Shown in pieces: positions 17,796-25,072 of a stretch of 54,682 nucleotides of DNA. The position numbers and the translations under genes are program-made. Every line of letters begins with the position of its first letter. The first letter of the stretch is position 1. The notes below the pieces were generated by a model. That model had not been told where the DNA came from. It searched no databases and saw nothing but the letters and a program-made list of their open reading frames with translations. Origin of the DNA: Elusimicrobiota bacterium (lineage in GTDB: Bacteria; Elusimicrobiota; Elusimicrobia; UBA1565; UBA9628); the NCBI GenBank assembly GCA_043745445.1, contig JAYTSX010000244.1, positions 1-54,682 on the forward strand, in the 5' to 3' direction.

Positions 17796-19208
17796 ATGAG
17801 CGTTCGGATCCATATCGCGGGACCGAGAGCCGGCCTGTTCGATTCTCGTTCGAGCGGCTTCCAACGGCATGCCCTGCTTGACGCCGTTCTCGGGCCATTG
17901 CTTTGTCCGGATGACGACAAAGGCCGGGGACTCCTCGAGTCTTGGCGTTCGAGCGACGACCTTCGCCTTTGGACCTTGCGGCTACGCTCCGGACTCCGAT
18001 TCCACACGGGACGAGCGGTGACGGCGCAGGACCTCGTCTTTACCTTTTCCCACATTCTTGCCTGCCCTCATGAGACGCCGGACAAGACTCTCCTGAGAAA
18101 CATCGCGCGGGACGGCGTGCGCGTCACCGGCGACAGAACGGTCGAGGTGGCGCTCGAGCAGCCTGACTCCAATTTCGCCCTCCTCATCAAGGACAGTTTC
18201 TACTCGATCGTACCGGAGGAGGAACTGCTTCCATCCGGTTCGGGGCTCGACGGGCCTTCGTCCAACTCGGGTTCGCATCTCGCTTGGAAACGCCATCCGG
18301 TCGGGGCCGGTCCGTATCGAACGGTCCGCGTCTCGGACGACGGCGCGGTCGTCGAGACGGAAGCGGCGCGCGACCTGCCCGAAGGCGCGCCGAAGAGCAT
18401 CCGTTTCTCGACCGGAGATTGCCCGCCCGATGCGGACGTGGCGCTCGGGTACGACGACAATCCGCTGCCCGGCCGCCTGCGCAAGAACGTCATCGACACC
18501 CCACTTGCGATCATGGGCCTGTATTTCGATTACACGCACCCCCTGGCGCGAAACGCCGATTTCAGGGTCGCGGTCTCCCTGGCGCTGGACCGCGCGGCGA
18601 TCAGCGCCTTGGTCGAGGACTCCAAACCCGCGAACGGCATGATCCCTTCTGATTTCTTGGCGAAATTCAAAAAGAAGCCGGCCCCTCCCCCCGGGCCCGA
18701 CCCGCGCCGGGCGGCGGATTTGTTCAAAAAGGTCATGGGCGCTTCGCTCGATTCTCCGGTCGCGATTCCCGTCGGAAGCCGCGCCATCGACGGACAATTT
18801 CCTCCATGGATCGTCGCGGTGGAGAAACAGATGAACCAAGCCGGCTTCCCCGCCCGCATGACGCCCGGCCGGGGCACGGCGCCGTTTTCAGTCGCCGGTT
18901 TCATCCCGGGAATACCGGATCTCGGCCGACTGTTCGCATTGTTCCGTGAAGGAACGGGGTGGGTCTCGCGTCTCGATGAACGCGATGGGGTCTACGACGA
19001 GCTGCTCGCCCGCGCCGCGACGCTCCGGGACTCGCCGGAACGCGAAGAGGTCCTGCGCGCGCTGAACGAACGCTTTCAGGCCCGCGCCTACGCCGTGCCC
19101 CTCTACGAAGAGCCGGTCGTGCTTTGGACCAATCCGGCTCGAGTGGCGTCCATCGGAGCGCGCCAAGGCATAAGCCTCGCTTACGAACGCCTGAGAATCA
19201 CCCCTTAA
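17796..19208 (+). CDS. Family-5 (peptide/nickel) solute-binding-fold protein without signal peptide
   Basis: WTLRLRSGLRFHTGRAVTAQDLVFTF, PVGAGPY and FRVAVSLALDR. No hydrophobic N-terminus. Confidence 0.75.
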   Translation: MSVRIHIAGPRAGLFDSRSSGFQRHALLDAVLGPLLCPDDDKGRGLLESWRSSDDLRLWTLRLRSGLRFHTGRAVTAQDLVFTFSHILACPHETPDKTLLRNIARDGVRVTGDRTVEVALEQPDSNFALLIKDSFYSIVPEEELLPSGSGLDGPSSNSGSHLAWKRHPVGAGPYRTVRVSDDGAVVETEAARDLPEGAPKSIRFSTGDCPPDADVALGYDDNPLPGRLRKNVIDTPLAIMGLYFDYTHPLARNADFRVAVSLALDRAAISALVEDSKPANGMIPSDFLAKFKKKPAPPPGPDPRRAADLFKKVMGASLDSPVAIPVGSRAIDGQFPPWIVAVEKQMNQAGFPARMTPGRGTAPFSVAGFIPGIPDLGRLFALFREGTGWVSRLDERDGVYDELLARAATLRDSPEREEVLRALNERFQARAYAVPLYEEPVVLWTNPARVASIGARQGISLAYERLRITP

Positions 19209-19209
19209 A

Positions 19210-20676
19210 TTGATACAACTGTCTCGGCGACGAATCGTGACGGCCGTCGTCGTCTGCGCGGCCGCCGGCCTCTTCCTCGCTCGAACCGGCCGCCGCAAGG
19301 CCGCATCACCCCCGAGCAAATCAATGGATCGCTATACCATCGCCTACGAGATCAAGTTCGAGGACTTCGACCCGCATTCTTTTACATCATACGCCAAGTA
19401 CGTGATCCTCCGCCAAATCTTCGAAACCCTCGTCCGAGTGGACGACAGCCTGAACGTCGTGCCCGGTCTCGCCGAAAAATGGAGCATCGACAGGGACGCG
19501 GGTGAGATCACCTTCTATCTGAGGTCCGCCCGCTTCCACGACGGCTCGCCCGTCACGGCGCTGGATGTCCGCGACTCGCTCCGCCGCGCGGCGCGCTTGG
19601 GCGCCCTCCAACGGCCTTCCGACGTCATCACTGCGGTCGATGAAAGGACGTTGAAGATAAAGATGTCTTCCGGCGCGGCGGAAGAGCTCCTGAGGAGTTT
19701 GACCCTCATCTATGCCGGCGTCGGAAAAGCCTCGACCGCGAGCGCGAACGGCTTCGTCGGCTCGGGCCCCTACCGCCTCGCATCTTACGACGCGAAGTCG
19801 GGGGCCGTCGACCTCGAACAATTCAACGGCTATTACCGGACGGTGCTTCAACCGCGACGCCTGGAGTTCCGGTGGGTATCGACGGCACGGATACACGAGG
19901 CCTTCGAACGCGGTGAAGTAGATGAGTTCGACACCAACAATTACCCGCTCGATGGAAACGCGACGGCGCCCGGAAGAAAGGTGGCCCTCTATTTCCCGAT
20001 GACGCGCTTCCTTGTCTTCAACCTGCGCTCCAACGTGTTCCGCGGCGTGGAGAACCGGAGGGCCTTCGTGTCCGCCTGGCCGAAGAAGTCGATTTCCAAA
20101 GAGCTCTATCCCTTCAGCGCGCCGGCGACCGGGCTCATTCCCAAGGGACTGTTGGGACACCTGAACGAAGAGGACGCGCGGCTGCCTCCGACGAAGCGCG
20201 ACCTGAAGGAGGAAGTGACCATCGGGACGGGCAATGCCTCCGAAGCCAGCGTACTTGAGAAAGAGCTCGCCCGCCACGCTCCCGGGCTCCGGGTTCGCCT
20301 GCGCGTCTACGCCCTTCAAGAGCGCATCATCGCCGACATCACGAATGGTTCCCTCGATGGCCGGATTTTCGGCAATTCGCCGAAGGACTTCGACGCGCGG
20401 TCTCTGCTGGCGACATTTACGTCGGGCCATCCGGTCAACATCTACGGCATCAAAGACGCCGGGTACGACGCGATCATCGACTCGCTCACGGGTAAAGACG
20501 AGGTTTCGCGGGAAGCCGCCCTAAAAAAGGCGGATCGACATCTGCTTCAACAGGCCTACCTACTGCCCCTCAGCTACACGCAGAGCTACCGCATCGTGCA
20601 TCAAGATTGTCCCGACGCCATCTGCGGAGATCACTTCCAGATCTGGGACCGCCAGTACGTCGGTGAAACGCCATGA
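19210..20676 (+). CDS. Family-5 ABC-type solute-binding protein with N-terminal anchor/signal
   Basis: SRRRIVTAVVVCAAAGLFLA; IFETLV, PGLAEKW, FHDGSPVTALDV and GSGPY. Confidence 0.82.
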   Translation: MIQLSRRRIVTAVVVCAAAGLFLARTGRRKAASPPSKSMDRYTIAYEIKFEDFDPHSFTSYAKYVILRQIFETLVRVDDSLNVVPGLAEKWSIDRDAGEITFYLRSARFHDGSPVTALDVRDSLRRAARLGALQRPSDVITAVDERTLKIKMSSGAAEELLRSLTLIYAGVGKASTASANGFVGSGPYRLASYDAKSGAVDLEQFNGYYRTVLQPRRLEFRWVSTARIHEAFERGEVDEFDTNNYPLDGNATAPGRKVALYFPMTRFLVFNLRSNVFRGVENRRAFVSAWPKKSISKELYPFSAPATGLIPKGLLGHLNEEDARLPPTKRDLKEEVTIGTGNASEASVLEKELARHAPGLRVRLRVYALQERIIADITNGSLDGRIFGNSPKDFDARSLLATFTSGHPVNIYGIKDAGYDAIIDSLTGKDEVSREAALKKADRHLLQQAYLLPLSYTQSYRIVHQDCPDAICGDHFQIWDRQYVGETP

Positions 20677-22343
20677 GCGAAAAGATCTCCTTCCGAGAGA
20701 GCATCATCACTCATGTACGGACCGGTCTCGTTCTGAGCACGCTGGCCCAGACGCTGATAACGCTCCTGCTGGCCGTTGCGTGGACGAACCGGAACATCGA
20801 AAACGAGGTGACCGGGATCGGCAGACAGCTCTCGCCCGAATTCGCCGGCGCCCTCAACGTCGACAACACGGTCGCGATCGTCGGCCGGCTCCAAGGGCTC
20901 GTGCAGCGCAAGCCCATCGTAGCGGCCCGTGTTCTGGGTCCTCAACTGGAGCTTTCGGCGTCCGCGGCGGGTCGAGCGCCGGGAACGCCGTCCGCTCGCT
21001 TCGTCACGCGAAGCTTCCCGCTGCCGACCGCGCAATCGGTTAAAGGCGATTATGCCCTCATCATCGTCGCCGACAGGCTCAGCTATTGGCCGCAGATCGC
21101 CCTTGCGATGCTCGCAATACTGAGTCTGGGCGTCCTGACGTACCTCGTGCTGACCAAGTACGTCAACGCGGCCGCGCGCAAAATCGGCGCGCCGATCGCC
21201 GAGCTCTCCGCCCATCTCGAGCGGGACGGCCTCGTGTCCGCGATCGACGGACACGAGTCGATGGAGATCGCCGAAATCTCGGTCATGATGCGGGCGCTCA
21301 GCGACGCTCAGACGCGCCTGTTCGACGTTCAAGACAAGATTCGCGAGGCCGAGGTCGACAAGAGTCTTTACCAGCTCGCCTCCCAAGTCGCTCATGACAT
21401 CCGTTCGCCATTGGCCGCGCTCGACGGCGCCATCGGCGACGCGGGACAAATGCCGGAAGACCAGCTCTCCCTGGTCCGCACCGCGACCGGGCGCATTCGC
21501 GACATCGCAAACGATTTGCTCGACATGCGGCGCGACAGGCGGGGGACGGCGCCGCCCACGATTCAATCTCTTGCCGCCGTGATCGAACCGCTCATCGCGG
21601 AAAAACAGATGCAGTACCGCTCGAAGCCGGGCGTCCGCATCGAGTGCAGGATCGTCGATGAGGCTCGCCGGATCAGCGCGCGAATCAACTCCGCGCAATT
21701 TGCTCGGGCGCTCTCCAACGTCGTCAACAACTCGATCGAAGCGCTCGGGGACGCGCCTGGGCGCGTCGCGACGAGTCTCTCGATTCAAGACGGCGACGCT
21801 CTCGTCAAAATCGAAGACGACGGGAAGGGCATCCCCCCGCACATACTCGAACGCCTCGGTCGGGACGGAGAAACTCACGGCAAGGAAGGAGGCTCGGGGC
21901 TGGGCCTGTATCACGCGAAAAGCTCGATCGAGTCGTGGGGCGGCCGCTTCGAGATCCAATCGGAAGCCGGCAAAGGAACGCGCGTCATTTTTCGAATCCC
22001 CATCGTCGCGACGGACGGCCCGCGGCGCACCGCGAGCGTCTTGATCGACGACGACCCGCTCGTTCAGAAGGTCTGGCTGATGGTGGCCAAGTCCAAAGGA
22101 GTGCCGCTGGCGGTCTTCTCGAGCCCGGCGGAATTCGACTCTTCGACGGAAGTGGCGAACACGGCATCGACGATCTTCATCGACTCCGAGCTTGCGGACG
22201 GCGTCAAAGGGGAGGAGTTCGCGGAACGACTTCACACCCGGGGATTCGCCAATTTATACCTGGCCACGGGAAAGTCCCCCGATTCCTTCCCCCCCATGCC
22301 CTGGATCAAAGGCGTCGTCGGGAAGGAAGCCCCCTGGCGCTAG
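20673..22343 (+). CDS. Membrane hybrid sensor histidine kinase with C-terminal receiver domain
   Basis: Two TM segments; H-box QVAHDIRSPL, N-box NVVNNSIEA, DDGKGI and GSGLGL. Receiver motifs LIDDD...FIDSEL...LATG...GK. Confidence 0.9.
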   Translation: MSEKISFRESIITHVRTGLVLSTLAQTLITLLLAVAWTNRNIENEVTGIGRQLSPEFAGALNVDNTVAIVGRLQGLVQRKPIVAARVLGPQLELSASAAGRAPGTPSARFVTRSFPLPTAQSVKGDYALIIVADRLSYWPQIALAMLAILSLGVLTYLVLTKYVNAAARKIGAPIAELSAHLERDGLVSAIDGHESMEIAEISVMMRALSDAQTRLFDVQDKIREAEVDKSLYQLASQVAHDIRSPLAALDGAIGDAGQMPEDQLSLVRTATGRIRDIANDLLDMRRDRRGTAPPTIQSLAAVIEPLIAEKQMQYRSKPGVRIECRIVDEARRISARINSAQFARALSNVVNNSIEALGDAPGRVATSLSIQDGDALVKIEDDGKGIPPHILERLGRDGETHGKEGGSGLGLYHAKSSIESWGGRFEIQSEAGKGTRVIFRIPIVATDGPRRTASVLIDDDPLVQKVWLMVAKSKGVPLAVFSSPAEFDSSTEVANTASTIFIDSELADGVKGEEFAERLHTRGFANLYLATGKSPDSFPPMPWIKGVVGKEAPWR

Positions 22344-22448
22344 GAGTGTGTCCGAGTAATCGGTTTTTTCACGCGAGAAACGATATATCGCTCCAACAAA
22401 TCAACGTATGAGTTTTCGACTCAAAATCGGTATTACTCGGACACACTC
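22344..22448. mobile_element. 105-bp MITE-like element with 17-bp perfect terminal inverted repeats and CTAG direct repeats
   Basis: GAGTGTGTCCGAGTAAT (22344-22360) and ATTACTCGGACACACTC (22432-22448). CTAG at 22340-22343 and 22449-22452. AT-rich non-coding core. Confidence 0.75.
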
Positions 22449-22462
22449 CTAGCGGTCGCGGG

Positions 22463-23410
22463 CTAGCTAAATGCCGCGCTTGATTCGCATTCCGCGAGCA
22501 ACTCACCGCCCAGCGCGGTCAGCTTGACGCCGGACTCACGCAGCGCCCGAGCGCCCGAACGCAACGCTTCGTCGATTTGCCCAATCCGGACTTCGAGGCG
22601 CGCGCGGCGCTGACTGGACAGGGCCGAATCGCCCAGCGCTTGGACGGCGAATTCTTTCATGTACGCGAGGGCGACGAGCGCGTGGAAGCTCTTGATCGCG
22701 GGGCGATGTTCGCGTCGGATCGCCGAATAAACGGGGGCGCGCAGATCACCATCGATGATGGGGTCCGCGTTCTGATAGACCATCAGCGCTTGATGGCCCA
22801 TCTCGTGCGCCAGATTAATCGCCAACTCGACGTCGCCGTGCTCCTCGACTTCAGGCAGATCGATGATGATTCCGCCTCGATAGAGATGGCTGCTGACGCC
22901 GCGGCCGTAGGGACTGCGGCCCCTCAGCGGGGGCCGGGCGCCCATCGGTATCACCTGCTTGACGAATTCGGCCGCGCGCGCGGCCAGGGATTCGTCGGCG
23001 CGGACGATCCAATCAAGCGCGGCCGGCACGGCCTGGGCGATCCGCGCGGCCCGACTCATGTCCAAGGTCTCGACGCACAGCCCTGTGGCTTCAGCGATCC
23101 CCAAATGTCCCAAGTGAAGATCCGGCGACGAGCTGAACGCGTCGTTCAGGAAAGACAGCGTCGCCGCGTCCGAGACGACCCGCGCGCCGCCGACGGCATC
23201 CGAAGCAGCGTAGTCCGAGGACGCGAAGTATCCAAGCCGCTCATGACAGCTCATCCACGGCCGATACTCCAGGAACTCCGAGCGGACAGCGCTATTCGCC
23301 CGTTCGAGGCTCTTGCGGTTCAGCTCGATCGACAGCTTGATCGCCCGCTCGGAGCCCTGGAGGCCGGTAAGCCAGCGTCCGGGGTAACGCCCCCGAACAC
23401 CGCGGCTCAC
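22463..23410 (-). CDS. HEXXH-motif protein, alphaKG-HExxH-type peptide beta-hydroxylase family
   Basis: NLAHEMGHQAL followed by VYSAIRREHRPAIKSFHA, matching the family pattern HExxH...S.(W)R...RP.....H. GTG start overlaps the stop of the upstream small ORF. Confidence 0.78.
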   Translation of the reverse strand: MSRGVRGRYPGRWLTGLQGSERAIKLSIELNRKSLERANSAVRSEFLEYRPWMSCHERLGYFASSDYAASDAVGGARVVSDAATLSFLNDAFSSSPDLHLGHLGIAEATGLCVETLDMSRAARIAQAVPAALDWIVRADESLAARAAEFVKQVIPMGARPPLRGRSPYGRGVSSHLYRGGIIIDLPEVEEHGDVELAINLAHEMGHQALMVYQNADPIIDGDLRAPVYSAIRREHRPAIKSFHALVALAYMKEFAVQALGDSALSSQRRARLEVRIGQIDEALRSGARALRESGVKLTALGGELLAECESSAAFS

Positions 23411-23583
23411 TTCGAGAAGGAGTGGTCGGTCAGGTCGGAATGAGTGATCGCGAAATCAGGCTTGATGGCGCTCATGAGCCGATCCATCATCAATTCGTCC
23501 GCGGTCTTCGGCTGCGGCGCCGGTGCGGTCTTCAAGGCCGCCATAGCGACAACGATCCCTAAGTAGTTAGCGATTTCATTCAT
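23407..23583 (-). CDS. 58-aa small peptide, candidate precursor/substrate of the HEXXH enzyme
   Basis: SD GGAGAGG (23593-23599) before ATG 23583. Sequence MNEIANYLGIVVAMAALKTAPAPQPKTADELMMDRLMSAIKPDFAITHSDLTDHSFSK. GTGA coupling to the HEXXH gene. Confidence 0.72.
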   Translation of the reverse strand: MNEIANYLGIVVAMAALKTAPAPQPKTADELMMDRLMSAIKPDFAITHSDLTDHSFSK

Positions 23584-23607
23584 GTGCCTGTACCTCTCCA
23601 GTAGACT

Positions 23608-23650
23608 AAACAAAGAGAAGGGACGGAGCGCAAGCGCTCCACCTCTTCCC
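23608..23650 (-). terminator. Terminator-like hairpin of the riboswitch expression platform
   Basis: GGGAAGAGGUGGAGCG-CUUG-CGCUCCGUCCCUUCUC (16-nt arms, one mismatch, GU pairs) followed by UUUGUUU. Confidence 0.6.
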
Positions 23651-23712
23651 CTGGTCTCATCCCGTTGAGGCGGGATCGTGGATACCCCGGGGCCGATTCC
23701 CCGAGCTACAGG
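23650..23712 (-). ncRNA. Purine-family riboswitch aptamer variant, 2'-dG-II-like
   Basis: CCUG-UAG-CUCGGGG-AAUCGG-CCCCGGG-GUAUCCACG-AUCCCG-CCUCAA-CGGGAU-GAGAC-CAGG. Three-way junction, GG/CC kissing loops, UCCAC (C at position 51), C74 and a lengthened J3/1. Confidence 0.7.
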
Positions 23713-23719
23713 CAGTTTT

Positions 23720-23763
23720 ATCATACACCACTGCGCGACGGGCCGCAGGTGTCTAAAGGCCTA
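23720..23763 (-). promoter_or_regulatory. -10 box TATGAT (23720-23725) plus degenerate upstream palindrome (23748-23763)
   Basis: The -10 box puts +1 at about 23713, the first base of the aptamer region. The palindrome GGTGTC-TAAA-GGCCTA lies 22 nt upstream of it. Confidence 0.5.
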
Positions 23764-23828
23764 GAACGGAGGGGGTCTTTATTCCCCCTCAAACCTAAGC
23801 GCCCTTCATCGAGATCCCAACCGTCAAC

Positions 23829-23845
23829 TTGGCATAAAAATTGAT
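23829..23845 (+). promoter_or_regulatory. Sigma54-type -24/-12 promoter TTGGCATAAAAATTGAT
   Basis: GG(23831-32)-N10-GA(23843-44). Matches TGGCA-N6-TTG with A instead of C at -12; 55 nt upstream of the precursor ATG. Confidence 0.62.
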
Positions 23846-23899
23846 CACTCCTAGGCATAAGGGCTCAGCGCACCGAGCCCACGCAACACGGAGGAACCA

Positions 23900-24037
23900 A
23901 TGAAGACTGAACTGAAGCAGACCGCGAGCCTCGACCTGAACCTCTTCAACGTTTCGGGCGAGTTCGAAGACATCGAGATGGTGATCAACGAGCTGTCCGG
24001 CAACGTCGAGATGTCCATCATGTCGCGCCGCTGCTGA
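23900..24037 (+). CDS. 45-aa RiPP precursor-like peptide (not in ORF track)
   Basis: SD GGAGG 23890-23894. Sequence MKTELKQTASLDLNLFNVSGEFEDIEMVINELSGNVEMSIMSRRC*. Strong GC3 bias; first gene of the modification operon. Confidence 0.85.
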   Translation: MKTELKQTASLDLNLFNVSGEFEDIEMVINELSGNVEMSIMSRRC

Positions 24038-24046
24038 TCGGATCGA

Positions 24047-24074
24047 GCTGGGGGGCGCGGCAGCGCCCCCCAGC
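24047..24074 (+). promoter_or_regulatory. Perfect 12-bp stem-loop between the precursor and the enzyme genes
   Basis: GCTGGGGGGCGC-GGCA-GCGCCCCCCAGC, no U-tract. Confidence 0.75.
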
Positions 24075-24097
24075 CACCATCACTTCAAGGAGGCTCC

Positions 24098-25072
24098 ATG
24101 CCCCACACGAATCTCATCACCGTCTCATCGATCGAAAGCGGCGCCCTGGACGGCGCCTTCATCCGGCGGGAATTGCCGGTCATCCTGAAAGGCGCGTGCC
24201 GGAACTGGCCCGCCTTCGACAAATGGACCCCCGATTTTTTCAAGCGGATCTACGGCAAGATCGAGGTCCCGATGAGCAACTATAAGATGGATCCCTATCA
24301 GCTCCAGACGCAGAAAGCGGCCATGCCGATCGAGGACTATCTGGACGGCGCCCTTCGGATCTCCGCCGGGCGGACCGGAGAGAACGAGAACCTTTATTCG
24401 GCCGGCTGGTTTTTCTGCAACGGGCACTGCGAACTACTCAAAGACGTCGCCGTCCCCTCCTACTTCGCGGAGAACTGGGCGGACCGGGTGCAGAAGGTGA
24501 TCCATTTCGACACGCGTTCGATCTTGTTCGGACATCCGAAAGTCGAGAGCCCGCTGCACACCGACTCGTTCTTCGTCAGCACCTATTTCGCGATGCTCAA
24601 GGGCCAGAAGCGCATGCGGCTTGTGGGGCCGGAGCACAGCGCGCACGTCAAGAACGGCTTCAACGTCTACGACGACGAGCGGGTTCGCGAGCTCGGCGCT
24701 AAGGGCGTTCCGGTCTACGACGCGGTGGTCGAAGAGGGCGATATCGCCTGGTTCCCGCCGGGCTGGTGGCACCATGTGAAAAACGACTCCTTCACCATCT
24801 CCATGACCACGAGCTTCGTGTCCTCCCATCACTTCCTGCCGTTCGAGCAGCAGGTGCGGGCGACCTTGATCAAGCCTCTCCTGCGGCTGGCCCAGGTCAA
24901 GGACGAAGTCCTCGAGCGCGCCTTTGACGGCGAGAACCTGGATCATTCGACGAAGGTCCTCGACGACGCGCACTACCTGCGCAACGAGACGCAATATGTC
25001 GGCTTCACGAAATCGGAGTTGGAGAAGACGGACCGGTTGCTCGAGCGTCTGCAGGACCGGCAGGCGGCGTGA
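24098..25072 (+). CDS. JmjC/cupin-like Fe(II)/2-oxoglutarate oxygenase
   Basis: SD AAGGAGG. Motifs PVILKGACRNWPAFDKWT, HxD (PLHTDS), GQKR and EGDIAWFPPGWWHHVKN. Confidence 0.88.
   Translation: MPHTNLITVSSIESGALDGAFIRRELPVILKGACRNWPAFDKWTPDFFKRIYGKIEVPMSNYKMDPYQLQTQKAAMPIEDYLDGALRISAGRTGENENLYSAGWFFCNGHCELLKDVAVPSYFAENWADRVQKVIHFDTRSILFGHPKVESPLHTDSFFVSTYFAMLKGQKRMRLVGPEHSAHVKNGFNVYDDERVRELGAKGVPVYDAVVEEGDIAWFPPGWWHHVKNDSFTISMTTSFVSSHHFLPFEQQVRATLIKPLLRLAQVKDEVLERAFDGENLDHSTKVLDDAHYLRNETQYVGFTKSELEKTDRLLERLQDRQAA

Follow-up and report, generated by a model that had tools for sequence, protein, structure and literature searches.

A short open reading frame ending in Arg-Cys as the probable precursor of a ThiF-dependent modified peptide

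An unannotated open reading frame (ORF) of 45 amino acids (aa) lies at positions 23900..24037 (plus strand) of contig JAYTSX010000244.1 of an Elusimicrobiota bacterium (assembly GCA_043745445.1; the whole stretch of 54,682 nucleotides analysed here is called the window). It ends in Arg-Cys and is followed by genes for, among others, a JmjC-type oxygenase and a ThiF-like adenylyltransferase. The question raised by this locus is whether such a short ORF is a gene and, if so, whether the enzymes encoded behind it act on its product. The ORF is almost certainly a real, translated gene, and its product is very probably the substrate of the cassette enzymes. Probably, the product of the ORF is a ribosomal precursor that the proteins of the next five genes convert into a modified peptide, that is, a variant of the ThiF-dependent peptides that are made on ribosomes and modified after translation (RiPPs).

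The ORF starts with ATG at 23900 and stops with TGA at 24035-24037. Its translation (MKTELKQTASLDLNLFNVSGEFEDIEMVINELSGNVEMSIMSRRC, 45 aa) comprises an acidic leader, in which L-F-N-V-S-G-E-F-E-D-I-E stands out as a motif, and a tail that terminates in Arg44-Cys45-COOH, with Cys45 as the single cysteine. The Shine-Dalgarno sequence GGAGG was read directly at 23890..23894 (+), with a spacing of 5 nt to the ATG. The G+C content at codon positions 1, 2 and 3 is 0.48, 0.28 and 0.89, respectively, the last value (GC3) comparing with 0.82-0.87 in the five genes downstream; in the shifted frames, the 0.89 moves to positions 2 and 1. A preliminary description, made from the letters alone, had claimed a 45-aa ORF at these coordinates with a GGAGG Shine-Dalgarno sequence, strong codon bias and a C-terminal cysteine as its only one, all of which was borne out. 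Both halves of the internal echo that it had pointed to (SGEFEDIEM and SGNVEM) are indeed present and recur in close relatives; they may be an internal duplication or two separate motifs.

A word-indexed search of 5.8 billion proteins returned three homologues of 40-45 aa with 67-79% identity, called as proteins in other assemblies (P0003-P0005), which match the window peptide from Phe16 to the end except at three conservative positions. When a profile of 16 peptides was run against 1.84 billion cluster representatives, 23 of these matched it at E<=0.001. Small proteins account for 21 matches. The other two are very long (P0020, 2889 aa; P0036, 2517 aa); P0020 was matched in six stretches, best at profile positions 20-38, which is the acidic leader motif, and both matches are probably due to repeated acidic sequence. 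Among seven Pseudomonas-type precursor genes, pN/pS was between 0.08 and 0.46 in 21 of 21 pairs, and comparison of the window precursor nucleotides with those of locus L075 gave a pS of 0.74 and a pN of 0.20. Judged from these substitution patterns, the precursor protein is under purifying selection. Because the ORF has homologues and is under such selection, it is beyond a chance occurrence. A search of sequencing runs with 23600-26400 returned four DNA runs, all from one study and each flagged as a possible source of the window DNA, and no RNA run was listed. Scanning 22300-30800 for sigma-70 promoters yielded no site, and the number of terminator-like sites in the same region (seven) was close to expectation (6.8).

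Whether the ORF travels with its neighbours was addressed by scanning metagenomes and genomes for loci, with the ThiF and JmjC proteins encoded nearby as queries. The genome scan with the JmjC alignment produced eight loci; that with the ThiF alignment produced no relatives. In all 12 loci with readable upstream DNA (4/4 from metagenomes and 8/8 from genomes), a small ORF of 39-51 aa ending in Arg-Cys is situated immediately 5′ of the JmjC gene, and the JmjC homologues of the scanned loci share only 30-67% identity with the one of the window. The preliminary description had tied the unannotated peptide to JmjC and ThiF and had suggested looking for a conserved C-terminus 5′ of homologous JmjC/ThiF genes; both the conserved cassette and the conserved terminus were found. 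What marks a RiPP precursor gene, namely, a small gene co-oriented with and adjoining those for peptide-modifying enzymes and conserved across genomes, is thus present here.

Among the 38 distinct peptides of the family, which are acidic and 30-53 aa long, 35 end in Arg-Cys, the sole invariant motif; in the alignment of 16 sequences, R44 and C45 are likewise invariant. Counting back from the cysteine as position 0 in the 35 peptides with this end (all of the following counts refer to them), position 0 is Cys and position -1 is Arg in every case. Position -2 is mostly Arg (25), otherwise Ser (9) or His (1) and never Gly, and position -3 is Phe, Ser, Gly, Ala or Val (Ser in 9, Gly in 8). The ending MSRRC highlighted in the preliminary description is therefore conserved with respect to its last two residues, but not as a whole. 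Further upstream, position -7 (Met, Leu, Ile or Val) is hydrophobic in 33 and position -9 (Leu, Val or Ala) in 32 peptides. Position -8 is Asp or Glu in 14 and position -10 in 26 (Asn or Gln in 4 more), so that an acidic residue is found at -8 or -10 in 32 of the 35. In the three exceptions, the nearest acid is at -14 (P0028), -12 (P0033) and -9/-11 (P0038). A single cysteine is carried by 33 peptides. In the upstream part, F16 and E21 are nearly invariant in the family, and the Bdellovibrio-type members have the motif D/E-L/I-F-N-V/L-S/T-x-E-x-D/E-D-I in common. As far as can be read from these alignments, the family pattern is that of a conserved acidic leader followed by a short tail whose sole fixed chemistry is Arg-Cys-COOH.

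In the window, the peptide gene is followed by a hairpin and then by genes for the JmjC protein, an OppA-fold protein, an MFS transporter, the ThiF-like protein and a fusion of an ABC-type ATPase with a GNAT-like domain. The five downstream proteins were recovered by tblastn across the loci with 24-67% identity. One of them is the ThiF-like adenylyltransferase (348 aa; 27536..28582, +; Pfam ThiF, 3.9e-27), the GTG start of which overlaps the stop codon of the MFS gene. A 751-aa ORF at 26327-28582 was dismissed as a frame artefact: over its first 400 codons, it runs across the MFS gene in a different frame, and only the last 348 belong to the ThiF gene. The best relatives of solved structure are MccB (3e-27) and PaaA (2.6e-20), followed by E1, ThiF and MoeB proteins at 1e-15 or weaker. 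An alignment of 18 sequences shows no variation at GCGGTG, D151, R162-Q163, K175 and D222, and the window protein has the Gly-rich ATP loop, the phosphate Arg/Lys and the Mg Asp of ThiF/E1-like adenylyltransferases. The spacing of R162/K175/D222 resembles that of Arg167/Lys180/Asp225 in EnfB (PMC12250964). Before the adenylation domain lies an N-terminal domain of ∼100 aa, for which a weak winged-helix lead was obtained (Atlas 0.91; 4 of the 10 top matches concordant); Pfam assigned no family to the N-terminal 112 aa. By analogy with MccB, PaaA, GrcB and EnfB, this domain may be a leader-binding one, i.e., a RiPP recognition element (RRE). Predicted complexes of the ThiF-like protein with the precursor, computed without controls, scored 0.29 and 0.22, the mark being 0.32.

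The first enzyme gene of the cassette encodes a JmjC/Cupin_8 Fe(II)/2-oxoglutarate oxygenase (324 aa; 24098..25072, +) with Pfam matches above cut-off (Cupin_8, 2.2e-15; JmjC, 1e-06). Its iron triad, H154-x-D156...H225, is invariant in five sequences, and its best solved relative is the arginyl hydroxylase JMJD5 (6e-17), followed by JMJD6, JMJD7 and FIH; it is predicted to be a peptide hydroxylase. The next protein (418 aa; 25069..26325, +) has the OppA/MppA/NikA fold of solute-binding family 5. The Pfam match of the window protein (SBP_bac_5, 2.6e-05) is below cut-off, that of its homologue in locus L012 (4.9e-12) above it; the counterparts in the other loci have 410-426 aa. Its structural model (pLDDT 82.6) matched OppA, NikA and MppA in Foldseek with E ∼1e-22 and a TM of up to 0.76. 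It contains neither a hydrophobic N-terminal segment nor a transmembrane-like one, and is predicted to be a cytoplasmic component that binds oligopeptides. The MFS transporter (406 aa; 26322..27542, +; Pfam MFS_1, 5.3e-20) shows hydrophobic segments, is kept in the cassette, and is predicted to be an exporter. The last gene (474 aa; 28570..29994, +) encodes a soluble ABC-type ATPase (residues ∼1-225; Pfam ABC_tran, 2.7e-13) continued by a GNAT-like domain (∼225-474). Its Walker A, signature and Walker B residues are invariant in 11 sequences, and no transmembrane segment was found. In the same 11 sequences, the stretch S-x-R-V-I-V-H-P-x-x-R-G-x-G in the C-terminal half is invariant, of which we take R-V-I-V-H-P-x-x-R-G-x-G to be the acyl-CoA-binding motif of GNAT enzymes. 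Further leads in this direction were a sub-threshold Pfam match (E 0.065, in the homologue of locus L011) and a language-model likeness to GNAT clusters (Atlas 0.96). Foldseek with the model (pLDDT 83.8) returned ABC ATPase domains only, and Pfam assigned no family to the isolated C-terminal 235 aa.

Between the stop codon of the precursor gene and the JmjC gene lies a perfect G+C-rich hairpin of 12 bp (24047..24074, +). Folding of 24030-24100 gave -36.5 kcal/mol (z -2.63), a value reached by one of 200 shuffles, and the hairpin is not followed by a T-run. In the same spacer, a hairpin was found in all 10 folded loci, with unrelated sequences (shuffles were computed for the window locus only). 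It is likely an attenuator or a transcript-end stabiliser setting the ratio of precursor to enzymes.

The cassette occurs in two gene orders. That of the window (peptide-JmjC-SBP-MFS-ThiF-ATPase, with SBP denoting the OppA-fold, solute-binding-like protein) is shared by loci from Bdellovibrionaceae, Bacteriovoracaceae and "Proteobacteria" metagenome-assembled genomes (MAGs), and the order peptide-JmjC-SBP-ATPase-ThiF-MFS is that of the Pseudomonas loci. The flanks are unrelated between loci and consist of housekeeping or efflux genes; an RND efflux/OprM-like operon lies upstream of the cassette in L009, L011, L013 and L014. The G+C content of the cassette in six Pseudomonas loci is 38-41%, that of the flanks 61-63%, which indicates that it moves as a unit and is a foreign island there. 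In these loci (L080-L082, L011, L013 and L014), this low-G+C island measures ∼6.3 kb. In the window, cassette and surroundings are similar in this respect (64.7% vs 63.9%). Decay is suggested in some of the Pseudomonas copies, L081 having split or shortened genes for ATPase and ThiF and L082 a split JmjC gene. The ATPase ORF of L013 is shorter (407 aa). No ThiF homologue was found at E<=1e-20 in 40 relatives of the window genome (25 of good quality). A variant locus, L012 (8273-12461), encodes a 30-aa acidic peptide ending in H-R-C, the gene for which overlaps the start of that for the OppA-fold protein; downstream of the latter follow ThiF, a 312-aa protein without family and a separate GNAT protein (Acetyltransf_7, 4e-07). 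Neither JmjC (18.6 kb read) nor MFS nor ABC ATPase was detected by tblastn in L012. Searches of the main texts in a limited literature collection retrieved no description of the cassette or of an Arg-Cys-ended family outside streptococci; the cassette is apparently undescribed. It is carried by Bdellovibrio-like bacteria and also by some Pseudomonas, where it forms a foreign island.

How might these parts cooperate? The acidic N-terminal two thirds of the precursor (D/E-x-F-N-V-S-x-E-x-D/E-D-I) would be the leader that docks on the enzymes, and the tail would be the core. The hairpin would raise precursor transcripts over those of the enzymes. The MccB/PaaA-like ThiF protein, with ATP, would adenylate a carboxylate of the tail, either that of the Asp/Glu 8-10 residues from the end or the terminal one, and a nucleophile of the same peptide would then take up the activated acyl group. 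The most likely one is the terminal cysteine thiol, which would give a thiolactone, as in the reaction of GrcB on GrcA. By analogy with the characterised enzymes, the chances that ThiF drives an activation followed by intramolecular capture at the Arg-Cys end appear about even, and the specific product, an Asp/Glu-to-Cys thiolactone, is a tentative suggestion. A lactone between Ser and the C-terminus was discarded, Ser being at -3 in just 9 of the 35 peptides. The JmjC protein would hydroxylate a side chain, for which the invariant arginine is the leading candidate. The OppA-fold protein would keep hold of the peptide inside the cytoplasm. An intermediate would be acylated or detoxified by the ATPase/GNAT-like fusion, and the product would leave through the MFS pump.

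Several observations weigh against this picture. Three members of the family lack the terminal cysteine (P0021, P0034 and P0040), one of them frameshift-like and two ending in Ser or Thr. The distance from the acid to the cysteine varies among the peptides, so that a ring of one defined size is unsupported, and in the window peptide itself, position -10 is Asn and position -8 is Glu. Locus L012 keeps the Arg-Cys end without JmjC; the invariance of the arginine can thus not depend on JmjC alone. The cassette contains no gene for a leader peptidase. When the N-terminal part of the ThiF alignment was compared with PDB sequences, only matches of E ∼1 to a phage protein appeared. The GNAT assignment is a lead, composed of the motif, the sub-threshold Pfam match, the language-model likeness and the presence of a GNAT gene in L012. 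Using hhalign, the ATPase alignment matched the L012 GNAT protein (E 0.41) and the L012 312-aa protein (E 0.15) without significance, and the stretch aligned to the former was confined to the R-G-x-G motif region. Finally, all of the chemistry proposed here is borrowed by analogy from other systems.

What else could the ORF be? The strongest competitor accepts ThiF as the activating enzyme but has it act on the carboxylate of Cys45, with the Arg44 guanidine, a hydroxyl installed on Arg44 by JmjC or a backbone amide closing a small terminal ring. Such chemistry confined to the terminus fits the fact that only the last two residues are invariant; MccB is the nearest solved relative of ThiF, an arginyl hydroxylase that of JmjC, and EnfB and IndF do activate the C-terminal carboxylate, which is then captured by a backbone amide or a Trp indole (PMC12250964, PMC12150305). 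However, it would leave the invariant, usually single cysteine without a role beyond bearing the carboxylate, L012 retains Arg-Cys despite the absence of JmjC, and rings of this kind have no precedent in the literature examined; we consider it unlikely. A related idea is that the terminal Arg-Cys, or the cysteine, is rebuilt into a small molecule on a scaffold and then cut off its carrier, for which 3-thiaglutamate, built on the C-terminal cysteine of a scaffold peptide in Pseudomonas (bioRxiv 10.1101/338681), is a precedent. Although invariance limited to two residues behind a long conserved leader would be expected of a scaffold, the preferences at -7 and -9 (hydrophobic in 33 and 32 of the 35) and at -10 (mostly acidic) indicate that more than two residues are constrained, and neither a peptidase nor an aminoacyl-tRNA-dependent ligase was detected in the cassette. 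This leaves the scaffold with a slim prospect.

The peptide could also be the carrier of a microcin C-like Trojan horse, to which ThiF adds a nucleotide at the C-terminal residue, with the GNAT-like domain, perhaps together with the OppA-fold protein, protecting the producer and the MFS pump exporting the conjugate. The gene content does parallel that of mcc operons, including the mccA-mccB terminator and MccE2 (PMC8323819), but the asparagine needed by the MccB mechanism is absent, 35 of 38 peptides ending in cysteine instead, and an N-P-forming route from Cys is not described in the available text of PMC12250964 and PMC12596934. The family peptides are, furthermore, acidic and 30-53 aa long as opposed to the heptapeptide MccA, even though longer forms of MccA exist (PMC12596934). 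Taken together, the Trojan horse appears quite improbable. If, on the other hand, the ORF were an unmodified regulatory leader peptide, its translation would control the hairpin and downstream expression, and it would have no role as a product. A short ORF followed by a hairpin (a strong one in the window) in 10 of 10 loci is what this would predict. Yet purifying selection acts along the whole peptide, its leader and terminal motifs are conserved between cassettes with enzymes only ∼30% identical, the hairpin of the window has no T-run and the downstream enzymes are of peptide-modifying kinds, all of which makes a purely regulatory ORF scarcely credible.

The probable precursor of a ThiF-dependent RiPP would have some consequences. 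ThiF-dependent RiPPs are a small, recently growing group, each new member of which has so far led to a new ring or bond. Here, a delimited six-gene unit comes with 38 natural precursor variants, by which the chemistry is pinned to the last two residues. A record of a named Pseudomonas strain (L080) contains at least one intact copy, which makes product and enzymology directly testable. For neither a signal-less OppA-fold protein nor an ABC ATPase/GNAT-like fusion was a role in RiPP formation described in the literature searched. The Bdellovibrio-like predators among the hosts hint, speculatively, at a role in competition or predation. Going further, one may imagine a new RiPP class defined by Arg-Cys-COOH, in which ThiF, JmjC, the OppA-fold binder and the ATPase/GNAT fusion build a reactive end group (e.g., a hydroxy-Arg/Cys thioester or a small heterocycle), with a binding protein and an ATPase of transporter origin put to use as soluble components of biosynthesis or immunity, and the whole being a mobile weapon or signal shared by predatory Bdellovibrio-like bacteria and plant-associated Pseudomonas. 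This wider proposal strikes us as rather unlikely in its entirety.

Genes next to the cassette were considered as possible further members. Divergently oriented upstream of the precursor gene lies a gene for an αKG-HExxH-type peptide β-hydroxylase (315 aa; 22463..23410, -; NCBIfam TIGR04267, 5.5e-17, above cut-off). By tblastn, none of the loci L003-L082 contains a homologue, nor did a search of 100 further genomes from the order yield one at E<=1e-15. About 20 homologues exist elsewhere, one of them from a Bdellovibrionales MAG, on contigs that differ in length from those with close peptide or ThiF homologues, which is a weak proxy. With no counterpart beside other cassettes, the hydroxylase was rejected as a member of the pathway; in the window organism, it may act on the precursor. 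A small ORF before it (23407..23724, -) has 105 aa, or 58 aa if an internal ATG is used. It ends in ...DHSFSK and has no family match, and its stop codon overlaps the start of the hydroxylase gene; it possibly encodes that enzyme's own substrate, and the two look like a second, independent precursor-enzyme pair. Just upstream of the hydroxylase gene, 17796-22343 (+) encodes a tandem pair of proteins of solute-binding family 5 (1.6e-31 and 3e-36) and, behind them, a histidine kinase, which together could be a peptide-sensing system. On the other side, 29963-30637 holds no more than a pair of overlapping ORFs in opposite orientation, of which that on the plus strand has no family match. Just past the cassette, 30699-32009 (+) encodes a 436-aa protein with a hydrophobic N-terminus, the C-terminal region of which resembles deoxyribonuclease I (NCBIfam PRK15137, 4.4e-09, far below cut-off).

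In the literature, ThiF-dependent RiPPs are divided by their chemistry into five kinds, those of microcin C, pantocin A, GRC peptides, enterofaecin and the product of IndF (PMC12250964, PMC12596934, PMC12150305). In microcin C, the C-terminal Asn is converted with formation of an N-P bond, and in pantocin A, an internal EEN is the site of modification (PMC12250964, PMC12596934); enterofaecin has a C-terminal imide, and the IndF product is an indolylamide (PMC12250964, PMC12150305). In operons for microcin C, a peptide gene and a terminator are combined with genes for a ThiF-like enzyme, an export pump and a GNAT protein for immunity (PMC8323819). The window cassette resembles them in that MccB is the best solved match of its ThiF protein, in the MFS pump, in the GNAT-like domain, in the C-terminal position of the key residue and in a structured spacer 3′ of the precursor gene, albeit without T-run. 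It differs in that the peptide is long and acidic and ends in Cys instead of Asn (Asn was found in 0 of 38 family peptides), and in the additional JmjC, OppA-fold and ABC-ATPase parts; equivalents of MccD and MccF were not detected. PaaA, the second-best solved match, adenylates a Glu side chain within a precursor of ∼30 aa (PMC12596934), whereas the window peptide has no Glu-Glu-Asn core, and its invariant part is C-terminal rather than an internal triplet. The preliminary description had been correct in stating that both the Asn of microcin C and the EEN core of pantocin A are absent. A ThiS/MoaD-type sulfur carrier, which would be a β-grasp protein with Gly-Gly at its end, was rejected; the peptide has 45 aa, ends in Arg-Cys and matches no family.

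EnfB and IndF are RRE-ThiF proteins that activate the C-terminal carboxylate with one ATP, after which a nearby nucleophile closes the ring (PMC12250964, PMC12150305). Their precursors, in contrast to the one described here, are short, hydrophobic and Trp-containing, belong to minimal clusters of Firmicutes, and none of them ends in Arg-Cys. With respect to JmjC, precedents for the modification of RiPP-like peptides are BipG of biphenomycin, which hydroxylates Arg-derived ornithine and whose cluster also encodes an αKG-HExxH hydroxylase (PMC12707348), and CzlI of curacozole, which hydroxylates a RiPP side chain (PMC11575548). Unlike in the clusters of BipG and CzlI, no MNIO, radical SAM or azole enzymes are found beside the window JmjC protein, but it shares with BipG, CzlI and JMJD5 the JmjC/cupin fold with an intact HxD...H triad, here in a RiPP-like cluster.

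Going by descriptions in reviews, the closest characterised precedent is GrcA/GrcB of Streptococcus pneumoniae. GrcA is a 39-aa precursor with a conserved GRC motif and Cys39 as the last residue, and GrcB is a ThiF-like protein with an N-terminal RRE that, with ATP/Mg, forms a thiolactone between Glu35 and Cys39 (PMC12250964, PMC12596934, PMC13361665); which carboxylate GrcB adenylates is stated differently in PMC12250964 and PMC12596934. The preliminary description had listed a thioester after C-terminal adenylation among its options, and the C-terminal Cys of the GrcB precedent agrees with this (PMC12250964, PMC12596934). The two systems differ in several respects. Position -2 is Gly in GrcA versus Arg, Ser or His here, so that no peptide of the present family ends in Gly-Arg-Cys, and the acid is at -4 in GrcA versus -8/-10 here. 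Family scans of ten window proteins encoded near the ORF matched neither radical SAM enzymes (GrcC and GrcD in GRC clusters) nor Rgg, and the stand-alone RRE and Rgg/SHP regulator of GRC clusters were not detected. The window cassette, for its part, adds JmjC, the OppA-fold protein and the ATPase/GNAT-like fusion, and its hosts are Gram-negative. What both have in common is a short precursor with a terminal Arg-Cys, an acid upstream of it, a ThiF-like protein with an extra N-terminal domain, and a transporter in the cluster. Hence, while the family represented in the window is situated outside the GRC family as defined, it may share its mode of working.

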